This document shows, piece after piece, positions 19 to 22,303 of a stretch of DNA of 42,271 bases; position 1 is the first letter of the stretch, and each line of letters starts with the position of its first letter. Source of the stretch: Candidatus Aenigmatarchaeota archaeon (GTDB lineage: Archaea; Aenigmatarchaeota; Aenigmatarchaeia; QMZP01; JACQNV01); NCBI GenBank assembly GCA_016202865.1, contig JACQNV010000010.1:1-42271 (forward strand), read 5' to 3'. A program made the translations under genes and the position numbers. The notes below the pieces were generated by a model. It was not told the DNA's origin. It saw only the letters and a program-made list of their open reading frames with translations, and searched no databases.

Positions 19-2052
19 ATGTCCAAAAAGTCAAAAAACAGTAGTAGCCAAAAAAGGCTGAAGGGGCAAACTGAGATAGTTATAGTTCTGGCGATCCTTA
101 TCATAGTGGTTGCAGTCGTGGCATTTTCTTTCAGTAATATTGTAAAAAAACCACCTCTTCCTGAAAACCTGGCCGGTTTGGGTGAAAGCCTGAAAATAGA
201 GGTTCAGAACTCCATCATAGACAGTTCCAGATCTGCCTTAAAAGCAGTATCAACAAACGGCGGTTATTTGTCTGCAGCAAGCCTCCCTGTTACAGTTGAT
301 TACAAAGGCTCAAAAGTTGCTTACTGGCAGTTTGCGAATGCAAGCTTTGCCTTATCCAAAGATCAAATAGGAAAAGAAATAGCAAAAGGCATTAAAGACT
401 CTCTAAAAAACATCGACCCCCAAATTCTGGGCAACAAAATAGGCAAAAAGATTTCACTTGGAAACATCAATGATGCTACAGTGGATGTAGAAATCAGGGA
501 TTCGGAAATTGTCGCTACAATTAGAACACCATTATCCATTGAGGATTTCAGCGTAACTGATACAGTAGAAGTTTCTGTCCCAACAACATTAGGAAAATCC
601 CTTAATTTTGCTTCGGAGATGATAACAAAAAACCTTGAGAGAAACAGAAACGATAGGGGTGAAGAATACCAAAACAGATTCTTTGAATGGTTTACAATAA
701 CATCGCTTTATTCTTACAGGCTTAATGGAATTGACGGCCAGCCAAAAGTCCCTGTAACAAGCGGTCCTTTGATTGGTTGTGGAAAAAGTATATACAAGAC
801 ATGGTTTGATGTGAAGCCTGAATTGGAGGCTTTGTTAGAAGGCTCGCTAAAAAACACATTTATTGTAGGGACAACACCAAAAAACATCACATCAACATCA
901 TCATTCCAATCGCACACATTACCAGTGCACACTGACCAGAAGGTCACATTCAATTTAGGTGAACCGCTTTCAGAGAGATCCTTCCAGATGTACCCAAATC
1001 CGCTAACAGTTAGGACAGTCGCAGCCCCCTACACAACACTATGCGTCTCACCGCCTATAGTTGTAAACTACTGGTTATTATTCCCTGTAGTGGCAGAAGT
1101 TGGCGAGGGAGACGACAAGTTTAATTTTGCTTTCACTGTTTTTGTCAATAACGATGCTCCTGGAGAATATGGAGATGCAACAAGGTTTATAGACGCATGG
1201 AAACAGCAGGTAAACACATGCGAAAAAGCGCAATGCGATGCCACTGTTTATGTGGAAGATGGTGATGGCCCCCTTGGCCTAGCTCACATTAACTATGCAG
1301 GCTGTTATTTAGGAAGAACAGACAGGCAAGGCGTTCTGTCAGCCAGCGTGCCTTGTGGCATCAGTGTCTTGGAAATAAGCAAAGGCGATCATACATTATA
1401 TTCAGAAGTTGTTGGTTCGGGAGATCTGGAATACAAATCAGTCCACTTGCTGAAAACGCCAACACTCAAGCTTAACTTGGTCACAGTTGAATTTACAAAC
1501 CAGTCCGGAAGCCTTAAAGTGAGCAGTGTTGAATCAAACACAAAAGAAGTTTCCATCGGGTTTAAAGCAGGCAGCCAAGAAACAAGCCTGCAGTCTAGCG
1601 ATTCTACAACCTTAACAAAGGATGTCTCACCAGGATCCAATTCAGTCGTCTCTGTTGTTAGAAGTGGGGCGGGGGAGGAACTGGGCGGATTTTTCAATGA
1701 TTATATTATTGGTGAAAGAAACACAGAAGTGTGGGTCTATATACCTGTTTTGAAGGGGGGTTTAGGCATAGCGCCTCCGCCAAGTTTGCAGCTTACTCCA
1801 CAGGAGGAGAGCGAATATGACAGGCTTTTGGATGAAGGTGACAGCCAAAAAATCACAGCTTTCATAATAAAAACCGCGCAGTCGAAGGGCATAGACCAGT
1901 CTGAAATAAACAGCGATACATCGCCTGCCTTGGAGTTCGCCGAGAAAATAAACGACCTCTCAAAAGCCATTGTAGACTGTGGGACCAAATTGGGCGAAAG
2001 CCTTCCAATCAGCGAGAAACAGATAGATGTAAATAAGTTACTATCATGTTAA
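19..2052 (+). CDS. Module 1 component A: giant secreted protein with class III (type IV pilin-like) signal peptide, 677 aa
   Basis: ATG ORF. The N-terminus MSKKSKNSSSQKRLKG/QTEIVIVLAILIIVVAVVAF has a basic n-region, a G-Q junction, Glu at +3 and a ~20-aa hydrophobic helix, as in archaeal prepilin/archaellin signals. The C-terminal half has a CarboxypepD_reg-like beta-sandwich pattern (ATVYVEDGDGPLGLAHINYAGCYLGRTDRQGVLSASVPCGISVLEIS). It is a paralogue of 7674..9527 (shared KVAYWQ, NFAS, CG..I..TW.DV, VPCGIS). Confidence 0.8.
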   Translation: MSKKSKNSSSQKRLKGQTEIVIVLAILIIVVAVVAFSFSNIVKKPPLPENLAGLGESLKIEVQNSIIDSSRSALKAVSTNGGYLSAASLPVTVDYKGSKVAYWQFANASFALSKDQIGKEIAKGIKDSLKNIDPQILGNKIGKKISLGNINDATVDVEIRDSEIVATIRTPLSIEDFSVTDTVEVSVPTTLGKSLNFASEMITKNLERNRNDRGEEYQNRFFEWFTITSLYSYRLNGIDGQPKVPVTSGPLIGCGKSIYKTWFDVKPELEALLEGSLKNTFIVGTTPKNITSTSSFQSHTLPVHTDQKVTFNLGEPLSERSFQMYPNPLTVRTVAAPYTTLCVSPPIVVNYWLLFPVVAEVGEGDDKFNFAFTVFVNNDAPGEYGDATRFIDAWKQQVNTCEKAQCDATVYVEDGDGPLGLAHINYAGCYLGRTDRQGVLSASVPCGISVLEISKGDHTLYSEVVGSGDLEYKSVHLLKTPTLKLNLVTVEFTNQSGSLKVSSVESNTKEVSIGFKAGSQETSLQSSDSTTLTKDVSPGSNSVVSVVRSGAGEELGGFFNDYIIGERNTEVWVYIPVLKGGLGIAPPPSLQLTPQEESEYDRLLDEGDSQKITAFIIKTAQSKGIDQSEINSDTSPALEFAEKINDLSKAIVDCGTKLGESLPISEKQIDVNKLLSC

Positions 2053-2066
2053 TAATTGGGGATTAT

Positions 2067-5000
2067 ATGAGAAAAGGTAAGATAATAACAATAATAGCCG
2101 TGATGTGCGCATATCTAATCCTAGCTATGCCTTTGGGTCTAGCCCAGAGTATAGGCGTCACTTTTTACAGTTCAGATGGCACAACAAAGTTACCTGTTAC
2201 AGCTACATTGCCAACACCTCACGATCTTGTGACTAAAACGGTAAGCTTCTTGCCAGATCCGACAGGAACACTGCAAAATGTTTTGGTGAAATACGACATC
2301 AAGCAGAAAAACTATCCAATAAACAGGGGTTTTGTCTGGCTTTGTCAAAACCTAGAGCCCTCTGATTGTTTAGCTCAAAAAAAGGAGGCAATAGCCCTTC
2401 AGGAGTTTTTGAGTAAAGAAAGAGTCTGGAGCGATGTTGGGGAAATAACAGTCACATATCCGCAAAAAGGGAATGTGTTCATCCTATTGAACCTTGATGT
2501 TGTCACACAAACAGGAAGCTCGCAAAGCGTCTGGGTTGGAATTTGGGATGAGATAACAAGCCTTGGCGCAAATCTAAACCAATTCTCTGTCAGGACAAAC
2601 AGGATAGCACCAGAAAGCATAAATTTGATTTTAGAGAAAGACCAGTTCGCAAATCTCACAGCAGAATTCATCAACAACTTCTACATGATACCAAGATCAT
2701 GGGTTAAGGAAGTCCAGATACCAAAGGTAGAAGGAAATGTAGTCAACATAATTTCAGGCACACAGCTTGATAATTTAGACTCGCCTCAGCAGTTTGGCGA
2801 ACCACACAAAAGAACAGCAACAGACAGAATTCAGACAAAGACTTTGAAAAAACAATTCAACCTAGAATTCCCAATAGCCTCGCTTACAGGCGGCGATGTT
2901 GTGGCTTCACCTGTAACATTATTTAACAATCCAAAAGCAGTGTGCGGCGAGGATACAGATAAAGACGGCAATCTGTGCGACAGGAGCCTTGGTGAAAGCG
3001 AATCGACATGCTGTAAAGACTGTGGTTGCGATTCTTTGGGGTCAAACTTCACCTGTAGCGTGAGCCAGATAAGCGACAAAGATCCTGGTGCCTGTGTAAA
3101 TTCAAATGAGATTAAGCTAGTCATATCTGACATAGATTCAAGCCTTGTGTCTTGCGAGAGAAGTCATGAGATTGAATTCAACGCAAGGATAACAAACCCG
3201 CCAGGAGATTTGAATGTTGAAGAATGGTGGTATAATTTAGATAACAAAACAAAGAGATCAATAAGCTGCAGCAAGAAGCTTGTGCAAGAATATGGATGCC
3301 AGCTAACTATAGAACCGTTGGATGATTGTTCAGAAGGCGTTCATGTAGTTAAAAACAACAAGCTATTTGCAAATGTAAGATATTCACAAAACTCTGTTTC
3401 CAAAGAATTGTCAACGCCTTTGCCTGATTTTGTTTTAAACCAAAGATCTATAAGCCAAGACCAGATAAGGGAGTTCATTGTGGCTGAATTCAAGACAATC
3501 AATAATGATTTAAAAGAAGGCGTGGAGCAAGCAAAAGATTTGATGAAAACCTGTGTAAAGTTTTTGAAATATAGTTTATATGCTGGTCTAGGGGCAGCAG
3601 CAATCACAGCCGCAGCAGCTTTGTATGAAGGCGGTAAAGCCATTAATTTATGGGGCGGCCCCAACAGTTTGATAGGGGCAAAAACAATTGGTGGTATAAT
3701 AGGCGGGGCAGCAGGCTTTGCAGCAGGCGGTCCTGTAGGAGCAGTATCAGGAGCTATATTTGGTAGTGGAGTAGGGAGTTGGTTAGGCCCTGGTAGCGGT
3801 CCAGCGCCACCAACATTCTCGCAAGGCCAGACCCTTACACCTACTCAACTTCAAGCTTTAGGCGCTCAACCTGGAAGCTCATTCACCAATGGTGGTTACC
3901 AATACACGCTTTCAGGAAATACAGTTCAAACAGTTAGCACCCCAATAAATGCTCCGGGGATTGGCCAACAATTAACAGCAAATCACTTTGCCTTAGGGTT
4001 CCCGCAAACAGGGAGCGTAACTTGGCAAGCTGGTAACGGCCAGACAAATACATACACAATGACAAATGGCGTGGTTACAGGAATAGCGCCTGCCACAGCG
4101 ACAGGTGTGGGAATAGTTCCAGCCGGCTTGTCTCCAGCAGTACCAATCACATCAGTATCCACACCAGGCGTATCCCCAGTCACAACTAAATCCGGTCCTT
4201 ACACGCCAAGCGGTACAATTTTATCTTTTGCAGAGTATCTTTCATTTGTAGATGGAACACAAATAGCGCCTATAATAGTAAATGCAGGCGCGCAGGGGCT
4301 CCAACACCTTGCTCTCCAATTTGGCCAAGCCTTCACTGGGACAGCCTCTGCCTTAAGCAGCGCATCTTTGAATATTTGCCAAGCAGCAAGCCAGATAATG
4401 GATGTATACAGCAGGATGGCAAATGCCCAATCATTCTTTGTTAAATTCCAATTATGTTTGCATAACTTTGACAACCTAATGGGTAATGGCGCATGCGATG
4501 GGGGCAAAGGATCAACAACATCCAATGCTTTATCTGCTTCGCAATCTTGCATGAATTTATTGCAAGGATGCATGACAGACTTAAAACAAATGTCAAATGA
4601 AGTTAAGGATTTCACAACAAGCCTCGCAGCACAACAGCAAAATTATGCCAACCAGTTGCCATCATCCAGAGCAGTTGATTTCTGGGTGGAAGAACTAGAG
4701 CCAATTACAGGGTTCCCAGATGGAAGAGGTAGGGTTGGAAATACTTGCGATCAAAGATCAATAAAATTCGGTTACACACCTACCTCAGTATGCTACACAC
4801 CCAAAATAACAAAGACACTGAAAACACATTCAGATAAAGTGAAGTCTGTTGACACTGAATCCAAAAACATTGTTTCAAGGGCAGACACATTGATAAGATA
4901 CGCTTCAGATTACACTTCCACTCAACCAGGAGCAGCTGACATAGCCAGAAACCAGACAATTTCAGTCGCAAAACAAATAGACACAAGTTCCAAGCTAATA

Positions 5001-6056
5001 AAGTCTTCAGCCCAGGACCAGTCAATAATAACATTGGCAGATAATATAGCTACCATAGCTGGCCAGATAATTTCCACTGCTCCAGTTCAGCTACTGGATG
5101 AAGCAACTGTGAAACAGCAAGCTTTGGATATAAGATCAGCAAGTTTAGACATACAAGGCCTAATTCCAGATTTGGTAAAGCAGGTTGATGTTACAGGCCA
5201 AGTTTTGGGAACAGCATGGTCAACAAAAGTCCAGGCAGACCAAGTATTTACAGAAGGTCCGGGCTCTTACACATTTGATTTCTCTTGCGGTGACAAGACA
5301 AATCCAGCAAAGGTCGATATTAAATACGAGACAGACTGTAGCAAATTACCACCACCAAGGGTTCCAAGCACAACAGCTGTCACAAGTCCTGTTGTAGGAT
5401 CAGCAACACCTGTTTCAACACCAGTTCCAACAACAGCAGCTGTCGCAATTAAATTAGGAAGCGATTACAACCAACCAACAGGAGTCCATCAAGGAATTGG
5501 AAAAGACAGCCAGCCAATAACAGATGGTTATGATAATAACAAGGAAGTTTTTGCTCTATTGACAAAACCAAATAATTCCGCGACTTGCGAAATAGACTGG
5601 GAACAAACAGGATTTATTTTATGGGTCCCATTGCAGGCAGTAGCTATAATTGGTACAAATCAAGATGTCGCAACTTACAATTTCACTGGAATTGTCACAG
5701 GAGGATTGGACGGCAAAAAAGATGTCAAGTTTAGATGCAAAGATTCTAACGGGACAATAACAGGAACAGCTATAGGCAGCATAAAAATCGACACAACTGA
5801 CCCAGTAGTATCCATAACCAAAATAGAAAAAACAAATGTTAACCCGCTACAAGTCAGGCTTGATTTGACAAGATCAGATGCAAATGGGATAAAAGCATGC
5901 GAAATCCAATGGCAATCAGGACATCCATTTGAGAAGATAGGGACAGCGATAAATTGGGTGCATGATTATAACATAACAGGAAGTTACCTTGTACAAGCAA
6001 GATGCTCAGATCCTGCAGGCAACTATGGTGTGACAAATAAGACCCATACATTATAA
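2067..6056 (+). CDS. Module 1 component B: very large Cys-rich surface protein with N-terminal signal peptide, central Gly/Ala-rich hydrophobic hairpin and C-terminal Ig-like domains (about 1329 aa)
   Basis: The long ORF runs 2046..6056. I prefer the ATG at 2067 (MRKGKIITIIAVMCAYLILAMPLGLA/QS is a Sec-type signal); the ATG at 2046 overlaps the stop of A1. A Cys module CGEDTDKDGNLCDRSLGESESTCCKDCGC lies at about 2941-3030. A Gly-zipper-like hydrophobic stretch lies at about 3570-3810. The C-terminus has Ig-like patterns (DTTDPVVSITKIE.., ARCSDPAGN). It is a paralogue of 9524..11635. Confidence 0.8.
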   Translation: MRKGKIITIIAVMCAYLILAMPLGLAQSIGVTFYSSDGTTKLPVTATLPTPHDLVTKTVSFLPDPTGTLQNVLVKYDIKQKNYPINRGFVWLCQNLEPSDCLAQKKEAIALQEFLSKERVWSDVGEITVTYPQKGNVFILLNLDVVTQTGSSQSVWVGIWDEITSLGANLNQFSVRTNRIAPESINLILEKDQFANLTAEFINNFYMIPRSWVKEVQIPKVEGNVVNIISGTQLDNLDSPQQFGEPHKRTATDRIQTKTLKKQFNLEFPIASLTGGDVVASPVTLFNNPKAVCGEDTDKDGNLCDRSLGESESTCCKDCGCDSLGSNFTCSVSQISDKDPGACVNSNEIKLVISDIDSSLVSCERSHEIEFNARITNPPGDLNVEEWWYNLDNKTKRSISCSKKLVQEYGCQLTIEPLDDCSEGVHVVKNNKLFANVRYSQNSVSKELSTPLPDFVLNQRSISQDQIREFIVAEFKTINNDLKEGVEQAKDLMKTCVKFLKYSLYAGLGAAAITAAAALYEGGKAINLWGGPNSLIGAKTIGGIIGGAAGFAAGGPVGAVSGAIFGSGVGSWLGPGSGPAPPTFSQGQTLTPTQLQALGAQPGSSFTNGGYQYTLSGNTVQTVSTPINAPGIGQQLTANHFALGFPQTGSVTWQAGNGQTNTYTMTNGVVTGIAPATATGVGIVPAGLSPAVPITSVSTPGVSPVTTKSGPYTPSGTILSFAEYLSFVDGTQIAPIIVNAGAQGLQHLALQFGQAFTGTASALSSASLNICQAASQIMDVYSRMANAQSFFVKFQLCLHNFDNLMGNGACDGGKGSTTSNALSASQSCMNLLQGCMTDLKQMSNEVKDFTTSLAAQQQNYANQLPSSRAVDFWVEELEPITGFPDGRGRVGNTCDQRSIKFGYTPTSVCYTPKITKTLKTHSDKVKSVDTESKNIVSRADTLIRYASDYTSTQPGAADIARNQTISVAKQIDTSSKLIKSSAQDQSIITLADNIATIAGQIISTAPVQLLDEATVKQQALDIRSASLDIQGLIPDLVKQVDVTGQVLGTAWSTKVQADQVFTEGPGSYTFDFSCGDKTNPAKVDIKYETDCSKLPPPRVPSTTAVTSPVVGSATPVSTPVPTTAAVAIKLGSDYNQPTGVHQGIGKDSQPITDGYDNNKEVFALLTKPNNSATCEIDWEQTGFILWVPLQAVAIIGTNQDVATYNFTGIVTGGLDGKKDVKFRCKDSNGTITGTAIGSIKIDTTDPVVSITKIEKTNVNPLQVRLDLTRSDANGIKACEIQWQSGHPFEKIGTAINWVHDYNITGSYLVQARCSDPAGNYGVTNKTHTL

Positions 6057-6102
6057 CAATTTAACAAGCTGTGAAATGAACCATAAATTGGCCAGCAAAA
6101 CT

Positions 6103-6112
6103 CTAATATAAC
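6103..6112 (+). promoter_or_regulatory. Putative archaeal TATA box for 6131..7528
   Basis: CTAATATAAC is centred about 24 nt upstream of the ATG at 6131 in a 75-nt intergenic gap. The spacing fits a leaderless or short-leader archaeal transcript. Confidence 0.3.
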
Positions 6113-6130
6113 CTCAACCTTATTTATTAT

Positions 6131-7528
6131 ATGTATTCCAAACATCCAAAACTTCTACTAGCCTTCAGCCTCTTCGGTTTATTCACATTTCTACTGTTAT
6201 TTGCTTCTTCCAGCCATGCCCTATTAACTGATGGTGTTGTAGTTGGCATACCGCCAAACGGTGCATGGAGAGCGACAGTTGAACTGCCTGATGATTACGG
6301 TGTGGTTGGCGGGATAACAGAATTTGTTGTGAAAACAGATTGCGACGACTGGTGCGATCTGCATTATGCAAAGGTTGTGACAGACTCCAAAAATCCAGTA
6401 CGCCTCCCTCTATACATATCAAGCCAAGGAAAGCAAATTGGGGATAAAAAAACATTCAGGATAGACATATCTGCTCTTGGCGTGACAAATAGCTATGATT
6501 ACGGTATCTGCGTAACTGGCTCAGCAAACACAAACAAAGGCTCTGTAGCAGATCCATGCAAAACAGTAAACTCTGAAAACGATGCCTTCAGCCTTTCAAT
6601 CTCACCTGATCCCGTATATGCTCAGCCAAATAGCCAAGCAGAATACACAATCTCTGTCTATTCCCAAGCTGTGATGGAAGTTGAAGTAAAATCGCTGCTA
6701 ACTGGGAAAACATGGAGCATCGTGACAGATCCAGACAAGAGGATTACAGCAACAGACAAATATCTGGTTGGTGACAATCCAGAACAAATAGAAGTAGAGG
6801 CGACAATCAAAGGCTGCACAAACTCCGATTTCTGCAAAAAGACAGCAACAGCGGCTTTAATTCCCACAAGCGCACCACCAAACCAAGCTGGCGGCGATTT
6901 CTCAATAAAAATAGACCCTGCATCAATAACAGGAAAAAAAGGCTTCCCGATAAGCTATTCCCTTGACATAACAAATCACAAGAACGAAAAATCTTATGAC
7001 ATTGAGATCATACTACCAGACAGCGGACTTGAAACAGACTTTAAGCCAATATATGGAAAATCAATTTCTGGCAAAGAAAATATAGCTTTCAAGGTAACGC
7101 CAACTGGAGATCAACAGTCATACACCTTCCAGATGAAAGTCACATCAAGCCAGGGAATAACAAAGCTCACTGATGCAACAATAAATGTTAATGAGATTGT
7201 AAACGATGCCATAAACACAGCTTCTGGCGGCGAGTTGGACGCAGAGGCTTTGAGAAAACTGAATGAATGGAAAGCTAAATATAAAGACTCTGATATAGGG
7301 ACACAAATAAAGGCAGCAGATGATCTGAATAAGCCCACAACTACACCAAAGGTTACAAGAACCCCAACACCTACAACACAGCCAAAACCAGAGACCAATA
7401 TAATGGATCTTCTACTTATTGTTGTCCCTGTGGCAGTTGTTATTGTCCTTCTACTGTTTATCCTAATTAAAAAAAGGGGCCATGTAGTTGAAGAAGGCGA
7501 AGAGGAAGGCGACTATAGCTGGAAATAG
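6131..7528 (+). CDS. Module 1 component C: secreted CARDB/NEW3-like (COG1470-like) surface protein with Thr/Pro stalk, C-terminal TM anchor and acidic tail, 465 aa
   Basis: Signal peptide MYSKHPKLLLAFSLFGLFTFLLLFASSSHA. Beta-rich repeats. Stalk TTTPKVTRTPTPTTQPKPE, then TM LLLIVVPVAVVIVLLLFILI, then KKRGHVVEEGEEEGDYSWK. It is a paralogue of 11626..13053 (GICV, PC, FCKK islands). Confidence 0.8.
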   Translation: MYSKHPKLLLAFSLFGLFTFLLLFASSSHALLTDGVVVGIPPNGAWRATVELPDDYGVVGGITEFVVKTDCDDWCDLHYAKVVTDSKNPVRLPLYISSQGKQIGDKKTFRIDISALGVTNSYDYGICVTGSANTNKGSVADPCKTVNSENDAFSLSISPDPVYAQPNSQAEYTISVYSQAVMEVEVKSLLTGKTWSIVTDPDKRITATDKYLVGDNPEQIEVEATIKGCTNSDFCKKTATAALIPTSAPPNQAGGDFSIKIDPASITGKKGFPISYSLDITNHKNEKSYDIEIILPDSGLETDFKPIYGKSISGKENIAFKVTPTGDQQSYTFQMKVTSSQGITKLTDATINVNEIVNDAINTASGGELDAEALRKLNEWKAKYKDSDIGTQIKAADDLNKPTTTPKVTRTPTPTTQPKPETNIMDLLLIVVPVAVVIVLLLFILIKKRGHVVEEGEEEGDYSWK

Positions 7529-7567
7529 GTCTGCAGACCTATTTCAACCCCTAACAGCTGGAAATAG
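7517..7567 (-). repeat. 39-nt palindromic insertion element, copy 1 (reverse orientation), with perfect 12-nt flanking direct repeat
   Basis: AGCTGGAAATAG occurs at 7517-7528 and again at 7556-7567, exactly 39 nt apart. Between them lies a perfect 24-nt palindrome GAAATAGGTCTGCAGACCTATTTC (7522-7545). Its reverse complement aligns with the copies at 12640..12687 and 15801..15848. The first direct repeat supplies the last 3 codons and the stop of 6131..7528. Confidence 0.75.
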
Positions 7568-7621
7568 CCTAATGAGTATATGGTGACATGAGACATCTCA
7601 GCACTCATTTCATAGTGAGAT

Positions 7622-7643
7622 GCTGAAACCGTAGGTTTTAAGC
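7622..7643 (+). repeat. Intergenic hairpin with core AACCGTAGGTTTT (copy 1 of 2)
   Basis: GCTGAAACC-GTA-GGTTTTAAGC. The 13-nt core at 7627-7639 is identical to 18778-18790. The outer stem differs in sequence but is still complementary. Confidence 0.3.
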
Positions 7644-7673
7644 TTAATGTACTAATTTTACCAAATTATATTA

Positions 7674-9527
7674 ATGAAAGCACAAGCAGAAATAGTCATT
7701 GTTTTGGCAGCCTTGATACTTGTTATAACCCTTGTCACAATTGTTTTCCAGACAGGTCTAAACTCGCCTGACATAACAAATTTAGCCTCTGTTTTCAGAG
7801 ATGAGGTAAACAGAAGACTCTATGAAGGTTCCTTTGATATTGTAAAGACAATCAGTCTTCAGGGGGGTGTTTTAGACCCAGTACCCAACTCTGTAGATTT
7901 GGCTGGCACAAAGGTGGCTTATTGGCAAATGTGCCAGAACAAGGCCCTTCCAAGCCTTGCAGATATAAGGAAAAACATAAAATTGGGAATTGAACGGTTT
8001 GTTAGTAATCTCAATATAAACGATTTTCAGGGAAAAAAAGCCTCTCTGAGCCTGAAAGATTTAGATATCATAATAAGAAATCAGGATATTCTGGCTACAT
8101 TTACCTTGAACACAAATTTAGCAGGTTATGATCTAGATCCGCTATATGAAATAAGAATTCCAGCTAACTTGGCTGAAGTCTATAATTTTGCGTCTGATTT
8201 TGTTGATGATAATGTCCAGAAAAGGCACTTCGAGAGGTTTTTGTTGTCTCTTATGTTCAGGACAGATGAAAACATTCTGCCAACTTCCGGTGTGCTAACA
8301 AAATGCGGTCAAGCGATAATAAGAACATGGGATGATGTTCAAGAACAGATCGAGAAGCTGAGGGACTATTCTTTTGTTAACACTGTTTTTTGGGCAAGTG
8401 GAAATGACGAGTTCAAATATTATATACCAGCTCTCAATGGAAAAAAATATGACAGTCTGAAAATAAACTTTTTAGGCAGCGATCTTACAAGATCCAATCT
8501 TCAATCCTCAAGAAATCCAATATCTATAATAAACTCCAAAACCATCAGCATAGTGGCGCCATATTGCATAAAGGATTATAGGGTTGATTATTCACTAAAC
8601 TCTCCTGTGGCAGTTAAGGTGACAGGAACACCTGACTACAGTTTTAATTTTGCAATTCTACCGTTTATCGATAATAATAAAATAGGCAAGTGTTCTGGCC
8701 AGCAAGCCTTTTCATATGGCTCTGACATATGCACTGAGGCAAAATGTGATGTCAAATTATCTGTCCTTGATGTAAATGACAGACCAATACCAAATACACA
8801 AGTAAATTTCGGGGCTTGTTCAGTCGGAAAAACAGATTTCTCGGGACAGGTTAAAGGCAAAGTTCCGTGCGGAATTTCAGAACTTGTTGTAAGCAACCCA
8901 AAATACACATACTTTGCCGATGTTGTCAGTTCCAAATCAATTCCAGAAAAAATAAAACTTACTAAACTCCCTACAATAAATATCAACTTTTACAGGGCCG
9001 ATGTTATAAGAACACTATCTTATGTGCTTAATACACCTTCTTATGGAGAAATTGAAAGAGTAAATATCGGTCAGATTCAAGGCGACTACATTTTCGCAAA
9101 ATTCAAATCAAAGACGGCAAGTCCGTGGTCGCAGAGGGAATTTATTTTGGTTAATGCCGGTCTGAACAAATCAACTGTGACTAGCCAAGTTGTGGATTTC
9201 TTGTCTCCAGACAACTACACAGTTGAAGTTTCAACCATGAAAAGAGCAACCTACAAATATCAGGTTTGTGATACCGGTCTAGGCGGAACAGGAATAGCTA
9301 AAGACTGTAAGACAAAAAGCGCCCCGACAGTTTTTAACGGGAAAATGGTTTTTGATTTCGAAATAAAGGAAGGCACAAAAGACATCTACATAACATCCCT
9401 AATACCAGCGGAAAGCGAGACAAGGCAGGAACAGACAGATTTTGATTATACATCCAATATAGCTGAGGTGTCTAAATGTTTTGACCCTATATCCACAACA
9501 AAACCTAGAGAGGTTTGCACATTATGA
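7674..9527 (+). CDS. Module 2 component A: giant secreted protein with class III (pilin-like) signal peptide, 617 aa
   Basis: The N-terminus MKA/QAEIVIVLAALILVITLVTIVF has the same Q-x-E-I-V-I-V-L-A junction as A1. CarboxypepD_reg-like segment CDVKLSVLDVNDRPIPNTQVNFGACSVGKTDFSGQVKGKVPCGISELVVS. Its stop overlaps the B2 start (ATGA at 9524-9527). Confidence 0.8.
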   Translation: MKAQAEIVIVLAALILVITLVTIVFQTGLNSPDITNLASVFRDEVNRRLYEGSFDIVKTISLQGGVLDPVPNSVDLAGTKVAYWQMCQNKALPSLADIRKNIKLGIERFVSNLNINDFQGKKASLSLKDLDIIIRNQDILATFTLNTNLAGYDLDPLYEIRIPANLAEVYNFASDFVDDNVQKRHFERFLLSLMFRTDENILPTSGVLTKCGQAIIRTWDDVQEQIEKLRDYSFVNTVFWASGNDEFKYYIPALNGKKYDSLKINFLGSDLTRSNLQSSRNPISIINSKTISIVAPYCIKDYRVDYSLNSPVAVKVTGTPDYSFNFAILPFIDNNKIGKCSGQQAFSYGSDICTEAKCDVKLSVLDVNDRPIPNTQVNFGACSVGKTDFSGQVKGKVPCGISELVVSNPKYTYFADVVSSKSIPEKIKLTKLPTININFYRADVIRTLSYVLNTPSYGEIERVNIGQIQGDYIFAKFKSKTASPWSQREFILVNAGLNKSTVTSQVVDFLSPDNYTVEVSTMKRATYKYQVCDTGLGGTGIAKDCKTKSAPTVFNGKMVFDFEIKEGTKDIYITSLIPAESETRQEQTDFDYTSNIAEVSKCFDPISTTKPREVCTL

Positions 9528-11635
9528 GATTGAAAATATTGTCTTTGGTGTTGGTCTTGATAGTTTCCAGTTCAAGCTTAGCTATGGCAATCGAGATTGA
9601 CTTGGTTTATAACAATAATGCAGTCAGTTCAGCGGTTTTTGATAGGTCAAAATTTTTTGACAAAAGTCTTGTAGTAAACAATAACACTCTGCATATTTCA
9701 GTCTCAGGAAAAAACAATATTTCAATAAGTAGCATACTGCTATTCTTGTGTAAAGATAAAGCGCCAGATGCCTGCGACTTTTCAAACCCTATAGAATATG
9801 AGAGGTTTGTGGAAACCGATTTTTACCTGAATGACATATCCAATAACAACAGGGCAAATATACTTACATTGGTTAAGGCAGGTGAAAGCTGGATAGGTGC
9901 GTGGGATTCAATAGAAAATGGTGTTTGGAAAACAGGTGAAACAGACAATTTAAATCTATACCTAAAACATGATGTTGGTTCTGACTTGAAAGTCGCAATA
10001 GAGAGCCTAGGTTCCATACCAACAAACTCTGTGGAAAAAGCAGATTTTTCGGGCAAACCGCTTTATATTCTAGAAGGCAAGAAATCAATAGGCCTATTCA
10101 AAAAGGATAAAATTAATATAACATCATCTTTCTCTTCAAACAAAGTCGACTTGAAAAAAGGATATACATTTGTTTTCCCTACAGGCAACCAAATAAACAA
10201 CCCAATAACCCTATTCAACACCCCTGAGCTTTGCGGTAATTTGAAGTGTGATATTGGAGAAACCTTCAACACATGTTGGCAGGATTGCGCATGTTCAGCT
10301 GGACTAGTAAACACACCTCACGGTTGTGTCCCTGAAACAGATTTAAAATTGAACATTGAAAGCAAAAACAGGGGCGAATTTAACTGCTTTATTCCACCTG
10401 ATATACAAGCTTTCCAAAACATTGGCGGTTGTGTATTTACTGATGACTTTGAAATAAAATTGAAAATAAACAATACACCGACAACATATTTGCTAAACCC
10501 CCCATACTTCTATCTGGGTGGGCAATCTTACCCAGTGGCTGGGCGAGGAACATGCACAGAGATAGGCGATTCATATCAAATAGTTGAGAACAACTTTTCC
10601 TCTGCTCCAACAATAGTCTACAACGCCTCTGAATTTTCCTGTAACCTTTATTTTCCACCGCTTGAAAGAGATGAAGAGTTTAATGAAACCCTGGCCTTCT
10701 CCATGATATTCCCAATAACAACGAAAGAAGGAAACAAAACAGAAACACATGAACTGACAGCAACAACAGGATTGGACATATCAGGCACAAGCTTGAGGTT
10801 GGACTTGACAGATCTTCAAGATTTAGCCAAAAAGAAAGCAGAATTGGAAAAGCAACATAGGGAACTCAATAAATACCAGTATTGGCTTTCAATCGCCGAG
10901 CTAACATATGAGGCTGTGAAAATAGCCTTGGATGGTTGCTGCGCCTCTGTAATAGGATCTGTCTTCTGTTGTGGTGCAGTTACTTTCTGGACACCCGTTG
11001 TTTTTGGTTTGCATCTTGCTAATGCTGCGTATGGCATCTACATGGACAGAAAATACGATAAAAAAGTGGATGAGGTGAAAGAATATGCTCAAGGAAAAGT
11101 TCAAGAGTCTGCTATAGAAGCAAAAATAGAAATTGCGCAGAATATTCCGAACCTTGTATGGGTTAATGGAGCAAAATCAGGGCCTTATACAGGAACTGTT
11201 TGCGGCCAGGAAAATGTTGAGGTCTGGTATAACTTTGAATCCTTTGGCTGCTCTCAACGCGACGGGTTGTGGTTCAATTTCAATAATGTGACAAGGCCTC
11301 AATGCGATTGTCAGCAATTTGAATGGATAAGCGAGAATATGGAAGGGCCAATATGCGATTGTAATCAGGTATCGACATCATTCTCCTGGATCAAGAAAGA
11401 TATTAATGGAAAAGAGACAGGAATGAGAAAATATAATCAGAAAGGCGCGCATCTTTTATTGAATACAACAGCAGATAAACTGTTCAAAAAAAACAATATA
11501 CTCAATATAACAACATTCTGCTCAACAGGACAGATAGAAGCAATAGCTGAGGAAGCCGGTTTTAGTTTGGGTCCTGATATCGGAGATGTAACAGCAGAAT
11601 TCGAGTTGGTAAATTATAATTCAACATGTCAATAA
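9524..11635 (+). CDS. Module 2 component B: Cys-rich surface protein with signal peptide and central Cys-rich hydrophobic hairpin (about 703 aa)
   Basis: The ATG at 9524 overlaps the A2 stop; the track ORF starts at TTG 9515. Signal MRLKILSLVLVLIVSSSSLAMA. Cys module ITLFNTPELCGNLKCDIGETFNTCWQDCAC (about 10225-10295) parallels B1. A helix followed by the hydrophobic stretch CCASVIGSVFCCGAVTFWTPVVFGLHLANAAYGIYM lies at about 10880-11045. Confidence 0.8.
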   Translation: MRLKILSLVLVLIVSSSSLAMAIEIDLVYNNNAVSSAVFDRSKFFDKSLVVNNNTLHISVSGKNNISISSILLFLCKDKAPDACDFSNPIEYERFVETDFYLNDISNNNRANILTLVKAGESWIGAWDSIENGVWKTGETDNLNLYLKHDVGSDLKVAIESLGSIPTNSVEKADFSGKPLYILEGKKSIGLFKKDKINITSSFSSNKVDLKKGYTFVFPTGNQINNPITLFNTPELCGNLKCDIGETFNTCWQDCACSAGLVNTPHGCVPETDLKLNIESKNRGEFNCFIPPDIQAFQNIGGCVFTDDFEIKLKINNTPTTYLLNPPYFYLGGQSYPVAGRGTCTEIGDSYQIVENNFSSAPTIVYNASEFSCNLYFPPLERDEEFNETLAFSMIFPITTKEGNKTETHELTATTGLDISGTSLRLDLTDLQDLAKKKAELEKQHRELNKYQYWLSIAELTYEAVKIALDGCCASVIGSVFCCGAVTFWTPVVFGLHLANAAYGIYMDRKYDKKVDEVKEYAQGKVQESAIEAKIEIAQNIPNLVWVNGAKSGPYTGTVCGQENVEVWYNFESFGCSQRDGLWFNFNNVTRPQCDCQQFEWISENMEGPICDCNQVSTSFSWIKKDINGKETGMRKYNQKGAHLLLNTTADKLFKKNNILNITTFCSTGQIEAIAEEAGFSLGPDIGDVTAEFELVNYNSTCQ

Positions 11636-13053
11636 AATATTTAATCCCAATAACTGTAGTTTTCACACTTTTGATTAGCCTAACCTCTGTGCGAGCTTAC
11701 TTGGAGACAAACTTCTATTTTACAATGGCTCCAAATTCCACATATTGCCTATCCACAATATTGCCGTCAGATCTAGGTTTCCTTGAAGATGACAAATATA
11801 CAATGGCGATAGACAGCGGTTTTGAAACAAACATAAACTTTATAGAGACAGAAGCCGGAAAAAACAACGCAATAAAAGTCCCAATATGCTTCTCATCCAA
11901 GAACAAAAATAATGGCGAGTTTGCAGATTATAAAATCAGGACATCTGGAACAAAGTTCTCACCGTTTGAATGGAAAGGTGGAATTTGCGTATCCAATAAA
12001 ACACAAGACACCGACAAGGACTCATCAAAATATGAAAAAAATCCTTGCGAAATAGTGAACGGTCTGAGCGATCTGTTCTGGATGGATATTTTTCCAGAGC
12101 AAGCCATAACTGTTCCTGGACAAGAAGAGACTTTCTATATAGAAATCCTACCGTCTGTGGACATGGAGATAGATTTGACAATAAACAGCAACGCCGGCAT
12201 TAACATAAACAATTCTTATCTGCGATTAAAACAGTATGAAAGAAAGCAAATAGAGTTAAGGGTAAATCCAACCCTAAAAGGAGAGTATTATCTAAACGCA
12301 ACAGCAAAAGCCATATTCAACAGGCAGTATTGTGATCTGCCTTTCTGTAAAAAAGAGATCGGCGCGAAAATCCTTGTAGACGGCGGCAAAAAAATCCAGG
12401 GCTGGTCATTCCTTGTTCTCCCGCGTTTCTTATCTGCCTACAACCAAAAACCAATAGAATATGTGGCCATAATAGAAAACAATCAAGAGGACAGAAACTT
12501 CTCAATAGATTTGGGTTTGCCGCCAGGTTTATTATCTGACACGAAAAGTATTTCAGGCATTGTTAGAAAGAGCGAAAGAAAGGAGTTCAGATTTAACATA
12601 ACCTTTGCAGAAAATATCCCGCAAAAATACACAATTGATTTTACAGCAACAAGGGGACGAAATAGGTCTGCAGGCCTATTTCCAGCTGAGGGAGACACTG
12701 AAAGGGTTTTGACAGCTTTCCTATCTCTCTACGAATCTGCAGATGATTTAAAATCCCAATGGAATTCAATAAGGGACCAAGTAGACGACAAGACGCGTGC
12801 TGAAATAGATGATTTGGTGAACAAATATTTGATAGATCTCAAAGATGGGGGGTTCAGTCCAGATGATTATACAAAGATAAGAAACAAAATAAATGAAACA
12901 TCAACTAAAACGAAAACAGAAAAAACACCAGCATCCACAACAAGTCCAGCAAACCAATCAGAACAAATGCCTGTGGTTGTTCTTATCTTGATTCCAGTAG
13001 TCGTGATTATAATCCTTTTAGTTTTAATGTTCGCAAGAAGAAAGCGAGTTTAA
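11626..13053 (+). CDS. Module 2 component C: secreted CARDB/NEW3-like surface protein with C-terminal TM anchor, 475 aa, carrying an in-frame 39-nt insertion
   Basis: Signal MSIKYLIPITVVFTLLISLTSVRA. Stalk TKTKTEKTPASTTSPANQSEQ, then TM VVVLILIPVVVIIILLVLMF, then ARRKRV. Its start overlaps the B2 stop by 10 nt. It is a paralogue of C1. Confidence 0.8.
   Translation: MSIKYLIPITVVFTLLISLTSVRAYLETNFYFTMAPNSTYCLSTILPSDLGFLEDDKYTMAIDSGFETNINFIETEAGKNNAIKVPICFSSKNKNNGEFADYKIRTSGTKFSPFEWKGGICVSNKTQDTDKDSSKYEKNPCEIVNGLSDLFWMDIFPEQAITVPGQEETFYIEILPSVDMEIDLTINSNAGININNSYLRLKQYERKQIELRVNPTLKGEYYLNATAKAIFNRQYCDLPFCKKEIGAKILVDGGKKIQGWSFLVLPRFLSAYNQKPIEYVAIIENNQEDRNFSIDLGLPPGLLSDTKSISGIVRKSERKEFRFNITFAENIPQKYTIDFTATRGRNRSAGLFPAEGDTERVLTAFLSLYESADDLKSQWNSIRDQVDDKTRAEIDDLVNKYLIDLKDGGFSPDDYTKIRNKINETSTKTKTEKTPASTTSPANQSEQMPVVVLILIPVVVIIILLVLMFARRKRV
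12640..12687 (+). repeat. 39-nt palindromic insertion element, copy 2, in frame inside 11626..13053
   Basis: TTTACAGCA (12640-12648) and TTTCCAGCT (12679-12687) lie 39 nt apart. The hairpin is GAAATAGGTC-TGCA-GGCCTATTTC (12659-12682). It is translated as (FTA)TRGRNRSAGLFPA. Paralogue C1 lacks these residues. Confidence 0.7.
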
Positions 13054-13061: not shown

Positions 13062-14825
13062 CTATTTATCGTACTCCTCTTCTTCACCATAGCCTTCCTC
13101 CTCATATTGCTCTTCATCTTCTGCTGAAGGTTTCTTTTTTAAAATCTTTTTCTTGACTATAATGAAAGCAAGAACGGCTATGATAATCACAATCACTACT
13201 AACAAAATTGGGAACTCGCCCTGTGTTGTTGCGGTCTTTGGTGCCCCAGAAGAAAGTATGGATTTGGCCAATGAGAATTTAGATTCGGCCTGCTGCAAAA
13301 GGATTGTAGCTGTTTGATAATCGCCTGCCTGCTGTTTTGTCTTGGAGTTATCTAAATCTAAAAGTATCGGAGCAAAAAACTTGTCAGCCTCGCTTGAAGT
13401 CACACCCTGTTTTGTTAGATTGCCTTTGAACGACCCAACTTCACTTCTGAGTTTGTCTATATCGCTTGTGACATCATCAAAAGCAGAGAATGACAGATAA
13501 ACTATTTTCACACCGCCATCGCTTTTTATCTTAACTTTTCCAGTATAATCTCCTGGATTGGTTGGTTTTATTGTTATTGTCACTTCTCCAGGGGCAGTGG
13601 ATGTGATAACAGGATTTGGTTGTGTAACTGTTATAATGTCCCCGGTGAAACCTTCAATTTCTGGCTGTTGTAGTGTAAGATTGCCTGCGCCAAGATTCCT
13701 GACAATCAACCTGTTTACAGACTCGTTTCCGGTGAGTATTTTAATGTAAGGTATAACAGGCGGATCAACATCTAGAACAGGTTTGTCAAGAGTTGTTGGT
13801 CCTGCCACTCCGCCTGTAACAGAGATCTTTATATCCAAAGGGACAGTCTTCAAGATAATAGCTGGAACACCGTTAGCTGTCTCAACAATATCAAAGCTGT
13901 CTTTTATAATCAGGCTTTTGTCTGCCCTGACTTTTATCACATATTCGCTTGAATTGCCTGCCTGTAGGCTTTTTGAAACCAGGTCAACAGTAACATACTG
14001 TTTTAGGCTGTCTGACATTGATATGCTCAAGTTAGAATAGCTTGTTGTTGTTGGATTTTTGATTGTAAATTGCCTGTCAACTGTGTCGCCTGCGACAGTT
14101 GTTGTGTCTATTGAGCTGACTGCAATATCCAAGCCTGTCTGTATTGGCGCGCCTGAACCACCACCGATTTCAAAATACATGACATAACCGCCGTTTTTTA
14201 TAGGAGCGCTTGTTGTTTGAGCTTCAAATGCGATGAAATATTTGCCAGAAGTCAGTGTGATATTAATATAATAGTCGCCGGGTCCAGTCCTATATTCTGC
14301 CTGACCGCTTTTTAGTTGTGTTAAATTGTTTGCAGTGTAGAGAGTATAAGTTACATTAGCAGCTACATTCCTAACATAGACAGAGCCTTCAATAAGAGGT
14401 CCGTTTATATTTTTTACAGCCTGAACAACCTGAAGGTCGCTGACATTTAAAATGAAATCAGAAGACTGGTTAAAACCAGGTCCAGCAAGCTGTATGTTAC
14501 CTTGGAATGTGCCTGTTTTCTGTCCAGTTGGTTGTATGAGGGGGTTTGGTCCGCATGTTGCTGTAGAATCATCTGCAAAGAAGCATGCCCATTTACTAGG
14601 ACTTAACATGTTAAAAGAACCAGCTGCTGTTGGGCTGAGATATTTTTGCCATGAAAGCCTGTTACCTGATTGTAATGCCTGTGTTTCCACAACCCAAATA
14701 AATGGTGTGCCGGCTGAAAGCGTTGAAGGAATGGTATATTTTGAAGTGATCTGCGAGGCTTGAGCGTTCACACTAAGCAACAGAACTACGCTTATAATAG
14801 CTACTAAAAGAAGGCTCTTATACAT
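13062..14825 (-). CDS. Surface protein with signal peptide, CARDB/NEW3-like beta domains, C-terminal TM anchor and acidic Tyr-containing tail, 587 aa
   Basis: Signal MYKSLLLVAIISVVLLLSVNAQA. Patterns such as VDRQFTIKNPTTTSYSNLSISMS and VNRLIVRNLGAGNLTL..PGEVTITIKPTNPGDYTGKVKIKSDGG. TM FPILLVVIVIIIAVLAFIIV, then KKKILKKKPSAEDEEQYEEEGYGEEEEYDK. It converges on C2 with an 8-nt gap. Confidence 0.8.
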   Translation of the reverse strand: MYKSLLLVAIISVVLLLSVNAQASQITSKYTIPSTLSAGTPFIWVVETQALQSGNRLSWQKYLSPTAAGSFNMLSPSKWACFFADDSTATCGPNPLIQPTGQKTGTFQGNIQLAGPGFNQSSDFILNVSDLQVVQAVKNINGPLIEGSVYVRNVAANVTYTLYTANNLTQLKSGQAEYRTGPGDYYINITLTSGKYFIAFEAQTTSAPIKNGGYVMYFEIGGGSGAPIQTGLDIAVSSIDTTTVAGDTVDRQFTIKNPTTTSYSNLSISMSDSLKQYVTVDLVSKSLQAGNSSEYVIKVRADKSLIIKDSFDIVETANGVPAIILKTVPLDIKISVTGGVAGPTTLDKPVLDVDPPVIPYIKILTGNESVNRLIVRNLGAGNLTLQQPEIEGFTGDIITVTQPNPVITSTAPGEVTITIKPTNPGDYTGKVKIKSDGGVKIVYLSFSAFDDVTSDIDKLRSEVGSFKGNLTKQGVTSSEADKFFAPILLDLDNSKTKQQAGDYQTATILLQQAESKFSLAKSILSSGAPKTATTQGEFPILLVVIVIIIAVLAFIIVKKKILKKKPSAEDEEQYEEEGYGEEEEYDK

Positions 14826-15116: not shown

Positions 15117-15932
15117 TTACCTGTGCATTTCTATCCAATTTACAGCCAGTTTTATCAGCTTCTCAAATTGTGCGGGTTCTCTAAAATAATGATCAGCGCC
15201 TTCTACTACCTCGAGAGCCTTTTCACCTTTAAGGTTTTTCAGAATCTCCTTGCTCCCCTCAAGAGGAACCAGATCATCCTTGTCGCCATGTAAAATTAAT
15301 GTCGGAATGTCTATCTTTTTTGCCATCTCAATCCCGTTGTATTTCAGGTAATCCTGATAAAAAGTGTAGTTTAGCTTGCAATACTTGTTTGCGGAAATTA
15401 AGTTAACATAAACATAGCCATTTTCCTTGCATTTTTTCATGAGGTCTTTCAATTCCCCTGTGCATAGATCAAGACTTGCTACAGGGGAGCTCAAAACCAG
15501 ATTCTTTATCCTCTTGTCTTTGGTTGTGAGTATTGTAGCTACAAGGCCGCCCAAACTGGAACCGATAAGACTAACCCCTTTCTTCTCCACAAAGCCCAAC
15601 TTCAAGACAAAATCAATTGCGCACCTCAAGTCGTCTACATACTGTGTTATCGTTGTGTTTTCGAAAATACCTTCGCTCTCGCCAATATTTGAAAAGTCAA
15701 ATCTCAGGAAAACAAAACCTTTTTTTGTCAGAGCTTCTGCCAGTGCAAGAGGTTTCGGCCCGTCCTTACATCTACCTCGAAAACCATGTGCAAAGACAAC
15801 AGCTGGAAACAGATCAGCGGATCTGTTTCGTCCCTCATCAGCTCTGAACGGTCCTTTACCTTCTGGTGTGTGCAAAATCCCAACCAATTTCTGTCCTTTG
15901 CTGTTTTTGAAAATAATTTTTTGTTCTGGCAT
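15117..15932 (-). CDS. Alpha/beta-fold hydrolase (dienelactone hydrolase / S9-like esterase family), 271 aa, carrying an in-frame 39-nt insertion
   Basis: Nucleophile elbow GSSLGG, HGDKDDLVP and GADHYF motifs in Ser-Asp-His order. It is a paralogue of 16517..17290. Confidence 0.85.
   Translation of the reverse strand: MPEQKIIFKNSKGQKLVGILHTPEGKGPFRADEGRNRSADLFPAVVFAHGFRGRCKDGPKPLALAEALTKKGFVFLRFDFSNIGESEGIFENTTITQYVDDLRCAIDFVLKLGFVEKKGVSLIGSSLGGLVATILTTKDKRIKNLVLSSPVASLDLCTGELKDLMKKCKENGYVYVNLISANKYCKLNYTFYQDYLKYNGIEMAKKIDIPTLILHGDKDDLVPLEGSKEILKNLKGEKALEVVEGADHYFREPAQFEKLIKLAVNWIEMHR
15801..15848 (-). repeat. 39-nt palindromic insertion element, copy 3, in frame inside hydrolase 15117..15932
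   Basis: Plus strand AGCTGGAAA (15801-15809) and AGCTCTGAA (15840-15848) lie 39 nt apart. There is a perfect 10-bp stem with a 4-nt loop, GAAACAGATC-AGCG-GATCTGTTTC (15806-15829). It is translated on the minus strand as FRADEGRNRSADL, which is absent from the paralogous hydrolase. Confidence 0.75.
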
Positions 15933-18083: not shown

Positions 18084-18091
18084 ATAAAAAA

Positions 18092-18700: not shown

Positions 18701-18772
18701 AAGCTACCCCCAATTTTTGAACAAACAATAATTAGAGCTAAATAATTTAAGCTTTAGTATATGAGGGAGTGG

Positions 18773-18793: not shown

Positions 18794-18802
18794 AATTTAA
18801 AC

Positions 18803-22259: not shown

Positions 22260-22303
22260 AAAGTTTCTGGAAGTGTTGATTTATAAATTGTTACTATACG
22301 CCA

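Follow-up and report, generated by a model that had tools for sequence, protein, structure and literature searches.

A duplicated three-gene surface module in an Aenigmarchaeota contig as a candidate part of a type IV filament operon

Two triads of surface genes at the contig end

The window analysed here is the whole contig JACQNV010000010.1 (42,271 nt) of a metagenome-assembled genome (MAG) of Candidatus Aenigmarchaeota. At one of its ends it carries six open reading frames (ORFs) on the forward strand, which form two triads of cell-surface genes, A1-B1-C1 and A2-B2-C2. An earlier note, made from the sequence alone, had described these triads as an old tandem duplication with conserved gene order, and the ORF list verified its coordinates for all six genes. 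The module occupies 13,035 of the 42,271 nt, which is the 31% of the window that the note had given. The start of A1 is only 18 nt away from the contig end, so that genes upstream of A1 have been lost to the assembly and not to biology.

A1 (19-2052) encodes a giant type IV pilin-like (modular pilin) protein of 677 aa. Motif and hydropathy analyses predict a leader, MSKKSKNSSSQKRLKG (nt 19-66), and a mature N-terminal hydrophobic helix, QTEIVIVLAILIIVVAVVAFSF (nt 67-132), and an AlphaFold2 (AF2) model together with Foldseek places a transthyretin-like, Cys-bracketed beta-sandwich at nt 1234-1413. B1 (2067-6056) is a giant secreted surface protein of 1329 aa with 29 Cys. It has a signal peptide (nt 2067-2144), a Cys knot of the form CG..C....GE...CC.DCGC (nt 2943-3029), a hydrophobic, Gly-zipper hairpin (nt 3573-3626 and 3678-3788), and a conserved Cys-rich helical region (nt 4374-4571), which is followed by an immunoglobulin (Ig)-like C-terminal part. 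C1 (6131-7528) encodes an S-layer-like surface protein of 465 aa with a signal peptide (nt 6131-6220), a Thr/Pro stalk (nt 7331-7393), a C-terminal transmembrane (TM) helix (nt 7409-7468), and an acidic cytoplasmic tail (nt 7469-7525).

The second triad consists of paralogues of the first. A2 (7674-9527; 617 aa) has the leader MKA (nt 7674-7682), a hydrophobic helix (nt 7683-7748), and a beta-sandwich (nt 8745-8927). B2 (9524-11635; 703 aa, 24 Cys) is a shortened version of B1 with a signal peptide (nt 9524-9589), a Cys knot (nt 10232-10294), and a long helical hairpin with its hydrophobic tip at nt 10916-11017. C2 (11626-13053; 475 aa) comprises a signal peptide (nt 11626-11697), a Thr/Ser/Pro stalk (nt 12898-12963), and a TM helix (nt 12970-13032) with only a short basic tail after it; it also contains an in-frame insertion of a palindromic element (12659-12682), which is described at the end. 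The triads are followed by a convergent gene, c12 (13062-14825, reverse strand), for a C-terminally anchored surface protein of 587 aa with an Ig domain of the HYDIN/DUF1573 type.

The overlaps of stop and start codons within the triads that the note had listed are all present. The A2 stop and the B2 start share the ATGA at 9524-9527, the ATG of C2 (11626) lies inside B2, the stop of which at 11633-11635 results in an overlap of 10 nt, and a candidate ATG of B1 at 2046 overlaps with A1, which ends with its stop at 2050-2052. Starting at 2046, B1 would have 1336 aa; the start at 2067 is likelier, because GGGGA precedes the ATG at 2067 and a clean signal peptide begins there. For B2, an alternative start exists at 9515 (706 aa). 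Judged from the arrangement of the genes, it is plausible that the two triads are translationally coupled operons.

The similarity of the two triads is confined to islands at the protein level, as had been proposed. BLASTP yielded an E value of 3e-53 for A1/A2 (29% identity over 512 aa, 181 bits), of 4e-15 for C1/C2 (21% identity over ~450 aa, 63.5 bits), and of 5e-8 for B1/B2 (23% identity, 43.5 bits, only the N-terminal ~290 aa). For comparison, the second partner of each pair was shuffled 100 times, and the best scores of the shuffled sequences were 24.6 (A), 26.2 (B), and 23.5 bits (C); pairs across families reached 17-24 bits. The motif islands GG(Y/V)L, KVAYWQ, NFAS, and VPCGIS for A, W(V/I)G.WD and TLFN.P..CG with the Cys knot for B, and GICV and FCKK for C were recovered in the alignments. 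No collinear similarity of the two triads at the DNA level was detected with blastn.

To place the duplication, further loci with A homologues (L numbers; see below) were compared. A neighbour-joining (NJ) tree built from A proteins groups the clades of the A1 type and the A2 type as sisters, which nest within a clade of the window and the loci L001, L003, L006, and L009. The double triad is also present in L001, L003, L009, and L043. All six triad genes of L043 are reciprocal best matches of the corresponding window copies, with 27-33% identity. The A' protein of L043 scores 286 bits against A2 and 143 bits against A1, and its B' protein scores 199 bits against B2 and 45 bits against B1. Hence, there was one duplication, in an ancestor of the sub-lineage, and both sets have been retained ever since as separate lines of orthologues. 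The duplication of A-B-C is lineage-specific but deep: four or more other assemblies contain separate orthologues of each copy, with ~30% identity. The description as an old tandem duplication of three surface genes stands.

The second set is consistently more derived: proteins of the B2 type have 700-840 aa, versus 1,150-1,750 aa for the B1 type. In the window, C1 has an acidic tail, whereas C2 does not. The joint duplication and the retention of both sets suggest that A, B, and C act as one co-adapted set, and the fact that the co-duplication was kept over a deep divergence is a hint that the three proteins may interact.

Gene order and protein families in related loci

A total of 43 related loci were gathered from a full hidden Markov model (HMM) search with the A family and a metagenome scan, and their ORFs were called and clustered. 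On the longer contigs with close homologues of A1, five or six small genes without any Pfam match are found directly upstream of A. The clustering, with the ORFs of 42 loci, revealed the recurrent order c9 - p6 - p3 - p4 - p5 - p2 - A - B - C, followed by the convergent c12. B lies directly after A in 34 of the 38 testable cases, with an overlap of mostly 1-14 nt, and C is at most three ORFs away from B in 12 of 15 cases. In general, gaps or overlaps between the operon genes comprise a few nt. The window ORF at 13062-14825 (reverse strand) is c12, with an orthologue in L043 at 8e-72. The A-B-C order thus recurs in many other genomes, a point on which the earlier note had made its proposal depend. 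Rather than standing alone, the triad makes up the distal end of a conserved operon with about ten genes; in the window, the contig end cuts off the initial five or six, four of which are genes for class III (pilin-like) proteins.

The operon is flanked by housekeeping genes, i.e. those for a DEAD helicase, for L12/L10/L1, for AspRS, and for PCNA, the last two of which were recognized by reading the sequence. A gene of ~440-530 aa that lies upstream of the operon in many loci was considered as a candidate for an assembly ATPase and rejected, as its motifs read as aspartyl/asparaginyl-tRNA synthetase; the gene beyond it is the one that reads as PCNA.

The extent of the operon families was approached in several ways. 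Word-indexed homologue searches retrieved only 4-6 close relatives, and a query with the B-family alignment gave no additional ones. A scan of a genome collection matched one species representative; its patterns are specific to the A1 subfamily, and it therefore has little bearing on the distribution. Source labels were available for six proteins of the operon families, five of which are from Aenigmarchaeota and one from Micrarchaeota, and the Micrarchaeota-labelled locus L041 is syntenic with the Aenigmarchaeota-labelled L007/L008. Resting on these six labelled proteins, the taxonomic range is poorly constrained.

Some loci deviate from the standard order. Genes for a nucleotidyltransferase (NTP_transf_2/Polbeta) and small partners lie within the operon in L003 (17204-18126), L009 (15352-16391), and L025 (16965-18063). 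These pairs resemble MNT/HEPN-type toxin-antitoxin systems and separate either C from A2 or B from C, depending on the genome; such insertions have struck the same spot of the operon repeatedly. A variant locus, found in L007/L008 (7500-16171) and L041 (7440-23048), encodes an unannotated protein of ~840 aa, an A-like pilin that is fused to VWA (1015-1102 aa), an A protein without such a fusion (640 aa), and a B protein (1880 aa), and has no small pilin genes immediately upstream.

The N-termini of c9, p6, p5, p2, and A are built alike, with a short basic leader ending with [KR][GA], a following Q or A, and a hydrophobic helix of ~20 residues. Examples are KGQMFIVT (c9), KGAFQLSLGF (p6), KGQ..MEY (p5), K[GA]Q(T/S) (p2), and KGQ.E (A). 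A [KR][GA]-type leader with such a helix is the class III signal peptide of archaea, as found in type IV prepilins and archaellins. N-terminal hydrophobic anchors are also present in p4 (~375 aa) and in p3, which has a very short uncharged leader (MNVG, followed by MVFG...). In the window, A1 has a leader of the pilin type that ends with KRLKG before QTEIVIVLAILIIVVAVVAFSF, and A2 has MKA before QAEIVIVLAALILVITLVTIVF; when all six reading frames of the window were scanned, the class III motif was found in A1 and A2 only.

The same N-terminus characterizes the A family, and the description of A as pilin-like in the note is supported. The start [KR][GA][QAST] is present in 123 of the 150 top matches, and most of the others are N-terminally truncated. 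With few exceptions, full-length members have 580-760 aa and begin with [KR][GA]Q.E and a hydrophobic helix. Counted as representatives of clusters at 50% identity, the A profile matches 2,632 proteins at E<=1e-3, of which 676 reach <=1e-10 and 202 reach <=1e-30. A paralogues that are fused to a VWA domain (P0144, P0148) were found in other loci only.

The AF2 model of A1 has a mean predicted local distance difference test (pLDDT) value of 73.5. It starts with a broken N-terminal helix (residues 18-36 and 49-79) and continues with a beta-rich alpha/beta region (strands at 92-188, pLDDT ~75-90), the Cys-bracketed transthyretin-like sandwich, two more beta-sandwiches, and a helical C-terminal domain that is closed by conserved cysteines. 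As modelled, the broken helix and the beta-rich region may resemble the architecture of pilins.

The B proteins have a Sec signal peptide, a conserved N-terminal domain of ~290 aa, and one to four knots of the form CG..C...GE...CC.DCGC. According to the sequences and a low-confidence model of B2, these knots appear to alternate with beta-rich domains. They are followed by a conserved element of helix, hydrophobic segment, Gly-rich loop, and helix, and by a Cys-rich helical region. The C-terminal part is variable, and some members have PKD or Big_7 domains C-terminal to the hairpin. A single strong hydrophobic segment is typical of full-length B proteins, in several of which a short or Gly-rich loop leads to another, weaker segment, and the B protein of L034 has a clean hairpin of two TM helices ~50 aa from its C-terminus. 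The view of B as a Cys-rich protein with a central hydrophobic hairpin, taken in the note, is in accordance with the family alignment and hydropathy. The extracellular-type domains after the hairpin and the L034 hairpin make a hairpin anchor with both arms outside the simplest topology.

In the B2 model, a long helical hairpin (429-473 and 481-540) carries a hydrophobic stretch at its tip. Foldseek with this model retrieved generic Ig or MG strings only, which are not meaningful. B1 contains a long Gly/Ala-rich "glycine zipper" stretch at 3573-3788 (aa 503-574), followed by a low-complexity insert of ~200 aa. Via the Gly-zipper region, the PHROG tape-measure family phrog_167 matched B1 (E 6e-7) and its orthologue in L001 (E 3e-6), and it matched neither four other B-family proteins nor B2. 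A relationship of B1 to tape-measure proteins was rejected, as the match does not extend beyond B1 and its closest orthologue and is probably compositional.

C1 and C2 have six Cys each, with conserved GICV and FCKK positions, and the overall architecture of the S-layer-like, C-terminally anchored proteins of archaeal type IV pilus loci (arCOG05471 type). They share with c12 a signal peptide, Ig-like regions (hints thereof in C1 and C2), a stalk (rich in Thr/Pro in C1 and C2), and a single C-terminal TM helix, to which an acidic tail is usually added. Hydropathy and the TM helices of C1 and C2 agree with the C-terminal anchoring stated in the note.

The cytoplasmic tail recurs in anchored surface proteins of these loci as a basic stop-transfer stretch followed by a run of Glu and Asp. 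In C and c12, it usually has an aromatic residue at or near its end, e.g. ...EEGDYSWK, ...EEEEYDK, ...EEEFY, and ...LEEGF. In the window it is found at 7469-7525 (C1), at 13062-13150 on the reverse strand (c12), and at 33800-33969 (a protein of 975 aa described below), and it is lacking in C2; further instances were observed in the C and c12 proteins of L001, L003, L009, L011, L020, L021, L025, and L043. The shared tail could be a conserved docking or sorting signal.

The type IV filament reading and its alternatives

Archaeal type IV pilus (T4P) loci commonly unite a set of some five minor pilins with a large adhesin or minor pilin that bears a signal peptide and with an S-layer-like protein that contains Cys and has a C-terminal TM helix (PMC4858521). 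The operon described here is composed likewise, as it encodes several small proteins and a large one with class III signal peptides, a further large protein with a signal peptide, and a protein that contains Cys and has a C-terminal TM helix; by analogy, this suggests a structural operon of minor pilins and adhesin of a type IV filament. On balance, we favour the interpretation that the six genes constitute the distal end of a conserved but unannotated structural operon for a type IV (pilus-like) filament in Aenigmarchaeota-type DPANN archaea, and that the last three genes of this operon have been duplicated in tandem in the present lineage. The note had seen no way to assign the triad to an archaeal pilus or surface system; the class III genes upstream of A in related loci instead place the module among the type IV filaments.

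In such a system, the small pilin-like proteins and A would be processed by a prepilin peptidase encoded elsewhere, and an ATPase and a platform protein of the FlaI/FlaJ type, also encoded elsewhere, would assemble a short filament or a tip-priming complex. Most Aenigmarchaeota MAGs are reported to encode FlaI and FlaJ homologues elsewhere in the genome (PMC8407114). A may be a "modular pilin" of ~600 aa that acts as the adhesin at the distal end, with a pilin-like N-terminal module, three beta-sandwiches, and a Cys-clamped helical C-terminal domain. B would be a giant Cys-rich ectoprotein, held in the membrane of its own cell by the central hydrophobic helical hairpin with both arms outside, and C an S-layer-like protein that carries a Thr/Pro stalk and is anchored by its C-terminal TM helix; B and C together would form a partner complex on the envelope side. 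The module as a whole would serve adhesion or host contact, and A2, the short B2, and the tail-less C2 might represent a diverged alternative adhesin set, e.g. for a different surface or host.

Several results weigh against this interpretation. The proteins of the operon remain below every Pfam, NCBIfam, and PDB-sequence threshold for pilins; the class III model Class_IIIsignal (PF04021) yielded E=0.37 and 11.3 bits for the A orthologue of L021, with a cut-off of 23.7. No obvious major pilin was identified among the operon genes, and in none of ~40 loci do a secretion ATPase, FlaJ/TadC, or a prepilin peptidase adjoin the operon. The profile-profile similarity of A to the small pilin families is weak (22% probability). 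In the AF2 model of A1, residues 1-43, i.e. the signal peptide and the first helix, have pLDDT values <50, and Foldseek with this model found transthyretin- and Ig-like sandwiches only, with no global match and no pilin among the top hits. The B2 model is unreliable (pLDDT 48).

All six A, B, and C proteins and their neighbours had zero matches above the Pfam and NCBIfam cut-offs, and comparison of the A, B, p6, and p2 families with PDB sequence profiles yielded nothing significant. The triad proteins belong to no family characterized in these resources, the other point on which the note had made its proposal depend. A1 and A2 matched no pilin or signal-peptide model of Pfam or NCBIfam at E<=1, including Class_IIIsignal and Pilin_N (PF07790). 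In favour of the filament reading, the N-terminus of the A profile has a weak resemblance to bacterial type IV pilins (E 0.66-0.93). DUF2341, the PilY1 beta-propeller, and VWA had no Pfam match in A1, A2, B1, and B2. ORF and library scans of the window detected no assembly ATPase, platform protein, or prepilin peptidase, in agreement with the note.

The closest parallels are the archaeal T4P loci, e.g. the Methanococcus Epd-type "system 1" and the Thermoproteales clades 4B/4E/4G (Makarova, Koonin & Albers 2016, PMC4858521). They likewise combine, in one operon, several small proteins and a large one with class III N-termini, a large protein with a signal peptide, and a protein that contains Cys and is anchored by a single C-terminal TM helix. 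In contrast to them, the present operon is not linked to an ATPase, TadC, or peptidase, has no detectable relation to the Pilin_N, Class_IIIsignal, and DUF2341 families, encodes a B protein with a central TM hairpin and repeated Cys knots, and has its distal three genes duplicated. The "dark matter" islands of DPANN archaea (Makarova, Wolf & Koonin 2019, PMC6393860, Fig. 2A) are similar in being clusters of unannotatable signal-peptide proteins. They were recognized via adjacent FlaI/TadC genes and interpreted as divergent pilins (PMC6393860), whereas the operon described here lacks FlaI/TadC and has a fixed order of ten genes with an A-B-C-c12 tail.

Bacterial systems offer parallels as well. 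The fimU-pilVWXY1E operon and the GspH-I-J-K tip complexes of the type II secretion system (T2SS) combine four to six minor pilins with a very large adhesin, apart from the major pilin and motor, and PilY1 is matched by the VWA domain in some A paralogues. However, homology is absent, the envelope is archaeal, the B and C partners are additional, and, unlike in the PilY1 operon, the large adhesin itself bears the pilin N-terminus. The logic of the A architecture is that of the modular pilins, i.e. PilB and PilC of Streptococcus sanguinis (PMC8179133, PMC9934059), CofB of enterotoxigenic Escherichia coli (ETEC), and TcpB of V. cholerae, in which adhesive beta-rich or vWA-type modules are grafted onto a pilin module, as in A and its VWA-containing variants. 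A differs from these by its larger size, its conserved Cys-clamped helical C-terminal domain, and the lack of a match in sequence or global fold. The "novel secretion system" with MoxR, VWA, and DUF4350 (PMC5898192) was rejected as an identity for the operon, because its gene set is different.

The same observations can be read without a filament. The class III-type N-termini might merely be membrane anchors of a static complex in the envelope or associated with the S-layer, as proposed for the bindosome of Sulfolobus, and the unlinked assembly genes, the lack of a clear major pilin, and the envelope-resident, anchored appearance of A, B, C, and c12 would fit such a complex; class III proteins as anchored substrate binders are also discussed in a 2026 preprint on archaeal type IV filament (TFF) systems. 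We consider a non-filamentous complex unlikely, because five co-operonic proteins with a prepilin-type N-terminus are a number typical of minor-pilin sets that co-assemble via their helices, and the bindosome proteins, too, require the ATPase and platform of a TFF. A set of small pilin-like genes that lacks an evident major pilin could also encode a pseudopilus. Its five or six minor pilin-like subunits would make up a short piston or fibre that serves secretion or DNA uptake, in the manner of GspH-K of the T2SS or the Com pseudopilus, and B and C would function as its cargo or as an envelope conduit. In favour of this, reduced DPANN cells need to take up many building blocks. Nevertheless, no secretin, conduit, or DNA-translocase homologues were found, and a 600-aa A protein with adhesin-type beta-sandwiches and VWA-fused paralogues fits adhesion better, so that a machine of this kind seems very unlikely.

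A different role of the B hairpin is conceivable, namely its delivery into the host membrane like a fusion peptide or a pore, thereby building a bridge between the DPANN cell and its host. The hairpin and its long flanking helices are conserved in most full-length B proteins, the phage tape-measure match of B1 and its closest orthologue involves the Gly-zipper region, and the DPANN lifestyle known from the literature would suit it. We regard this as quite unlikely, since the tape-measure match is missing from four other B proteins, the L034 hairpin near the C-terminus resembles an ordinary anchor, and similarity to fusexins or known pore-formers is lacking: fusexin and HAP2-GCS1 had no Pfam match in B1, B2, and five other B proteins, and the PDB profile search was empty. 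An extended version, in which the operon encodes a host-contact organelle of the Aenigmarchaeota with a short A-tipped filament that positions B for the insertion of its hairpin into the host membrane, is quite unlikely, too; in this organelle, the hairpin would open or stabilize an intercellular bridge, and A2-B2-C2 would be a second, host-specific "key". A surface gene cassette derived from a mobile element or virus, for which the toxin-antitoxin pairs inserted at some loci and the weak tape-measure match could be quoted, is extremely improbable: synteny with housekeeping genes is stable over deeply diverged genomes, the GC content is similar to that of the remaining contig, no integrase, capsid, or terminase was found, and tape-measure was the only PHROG match.

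Under the preferred reading, the genes would belong to an accessory operon for an archaeal type IV filament, which is a known kind of system, and divergent DPANN pilin islands have been noted before. The ten-gene operon, the A family, the hairpin-anchored Cys-knot B family, and the co-duplicated A-B-C set were absent from the searched literature, Pfam, NCBIfam, and PDB. DPANN archaea depend on cell contact, yet their contact proteins are almost unknown beyond a few cultured Nanoarchaeota and Nanohaloarchaeota. The operon offers a fixed, widely conserved, and so far unannotated set of about ten genes, in which a clear signature of type IV filaments is combined with three very large partners at the surface, and thus a list of targets for Aenigmarchaeota enrichments. 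Thousands of "hypothetical proteins" could be annotated as pilin-like, adhesin, or anchor components.

Other features of the window

The remainder of the window is consistent with a DPANN archaeon, which fits the reduced archaeal host assumed in the note. Reading of the translations identified the archaeal ribosomal proteins L11, L1, L10, and L12 and a SUF operon. Scans of the window for tRNAs and Rfam families gave no match, and Rfam and tandem-repeat scans of the triad region were empty.

The protein of 975 aa with an acidic tail is encoded at 31042-33969, just after the SUF operon. It has a signal peptide, a C-terminal TM helix, a Pro/Ser linker, weak Ig-like Pfam hints below the threshold, and a pair of Cys-rich repeats (CRENWDC...C.NG...C.DKN.C.N), and it is a further large surface protein to which no family was assigned. 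Several ORFs of ~200-340 aa without a Pfam match at E<=1e-3 are located at 17268-19576 and 21666-24545, next to purine-salvage-like genes.

A palindromic element with a core of 24 nt, GAAAYAGRTCNGCNGRYCTRTTTC, is present in three copies at 7522-7545, 12659-12682, and 15806-15829, with similar flanks (CAGCTG... and ...GTCCC); 0 copies are expected from shuffled sequences, and no copy was found in the 43 related loci. The first copy overlaps the stop codon of C1. The second is the in-frame insertion of ~13 aa, GRNRSAGLFPAEGD, in C2, which is missing from all other C-family proteins. The third lies in frame in a gene for an alpha/beta-hydrolase (15117-15932, reverse strand), the paralogue of which (16517-17290, reverse strand) has no copy. 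The stems vary by compensatory changes, e.g. TAGGTC/GACCTA versus CAGATC/GATCTG. In inserting into coding sequences, the palindromes of the window are similar to the Rickettsia palindromic elements.

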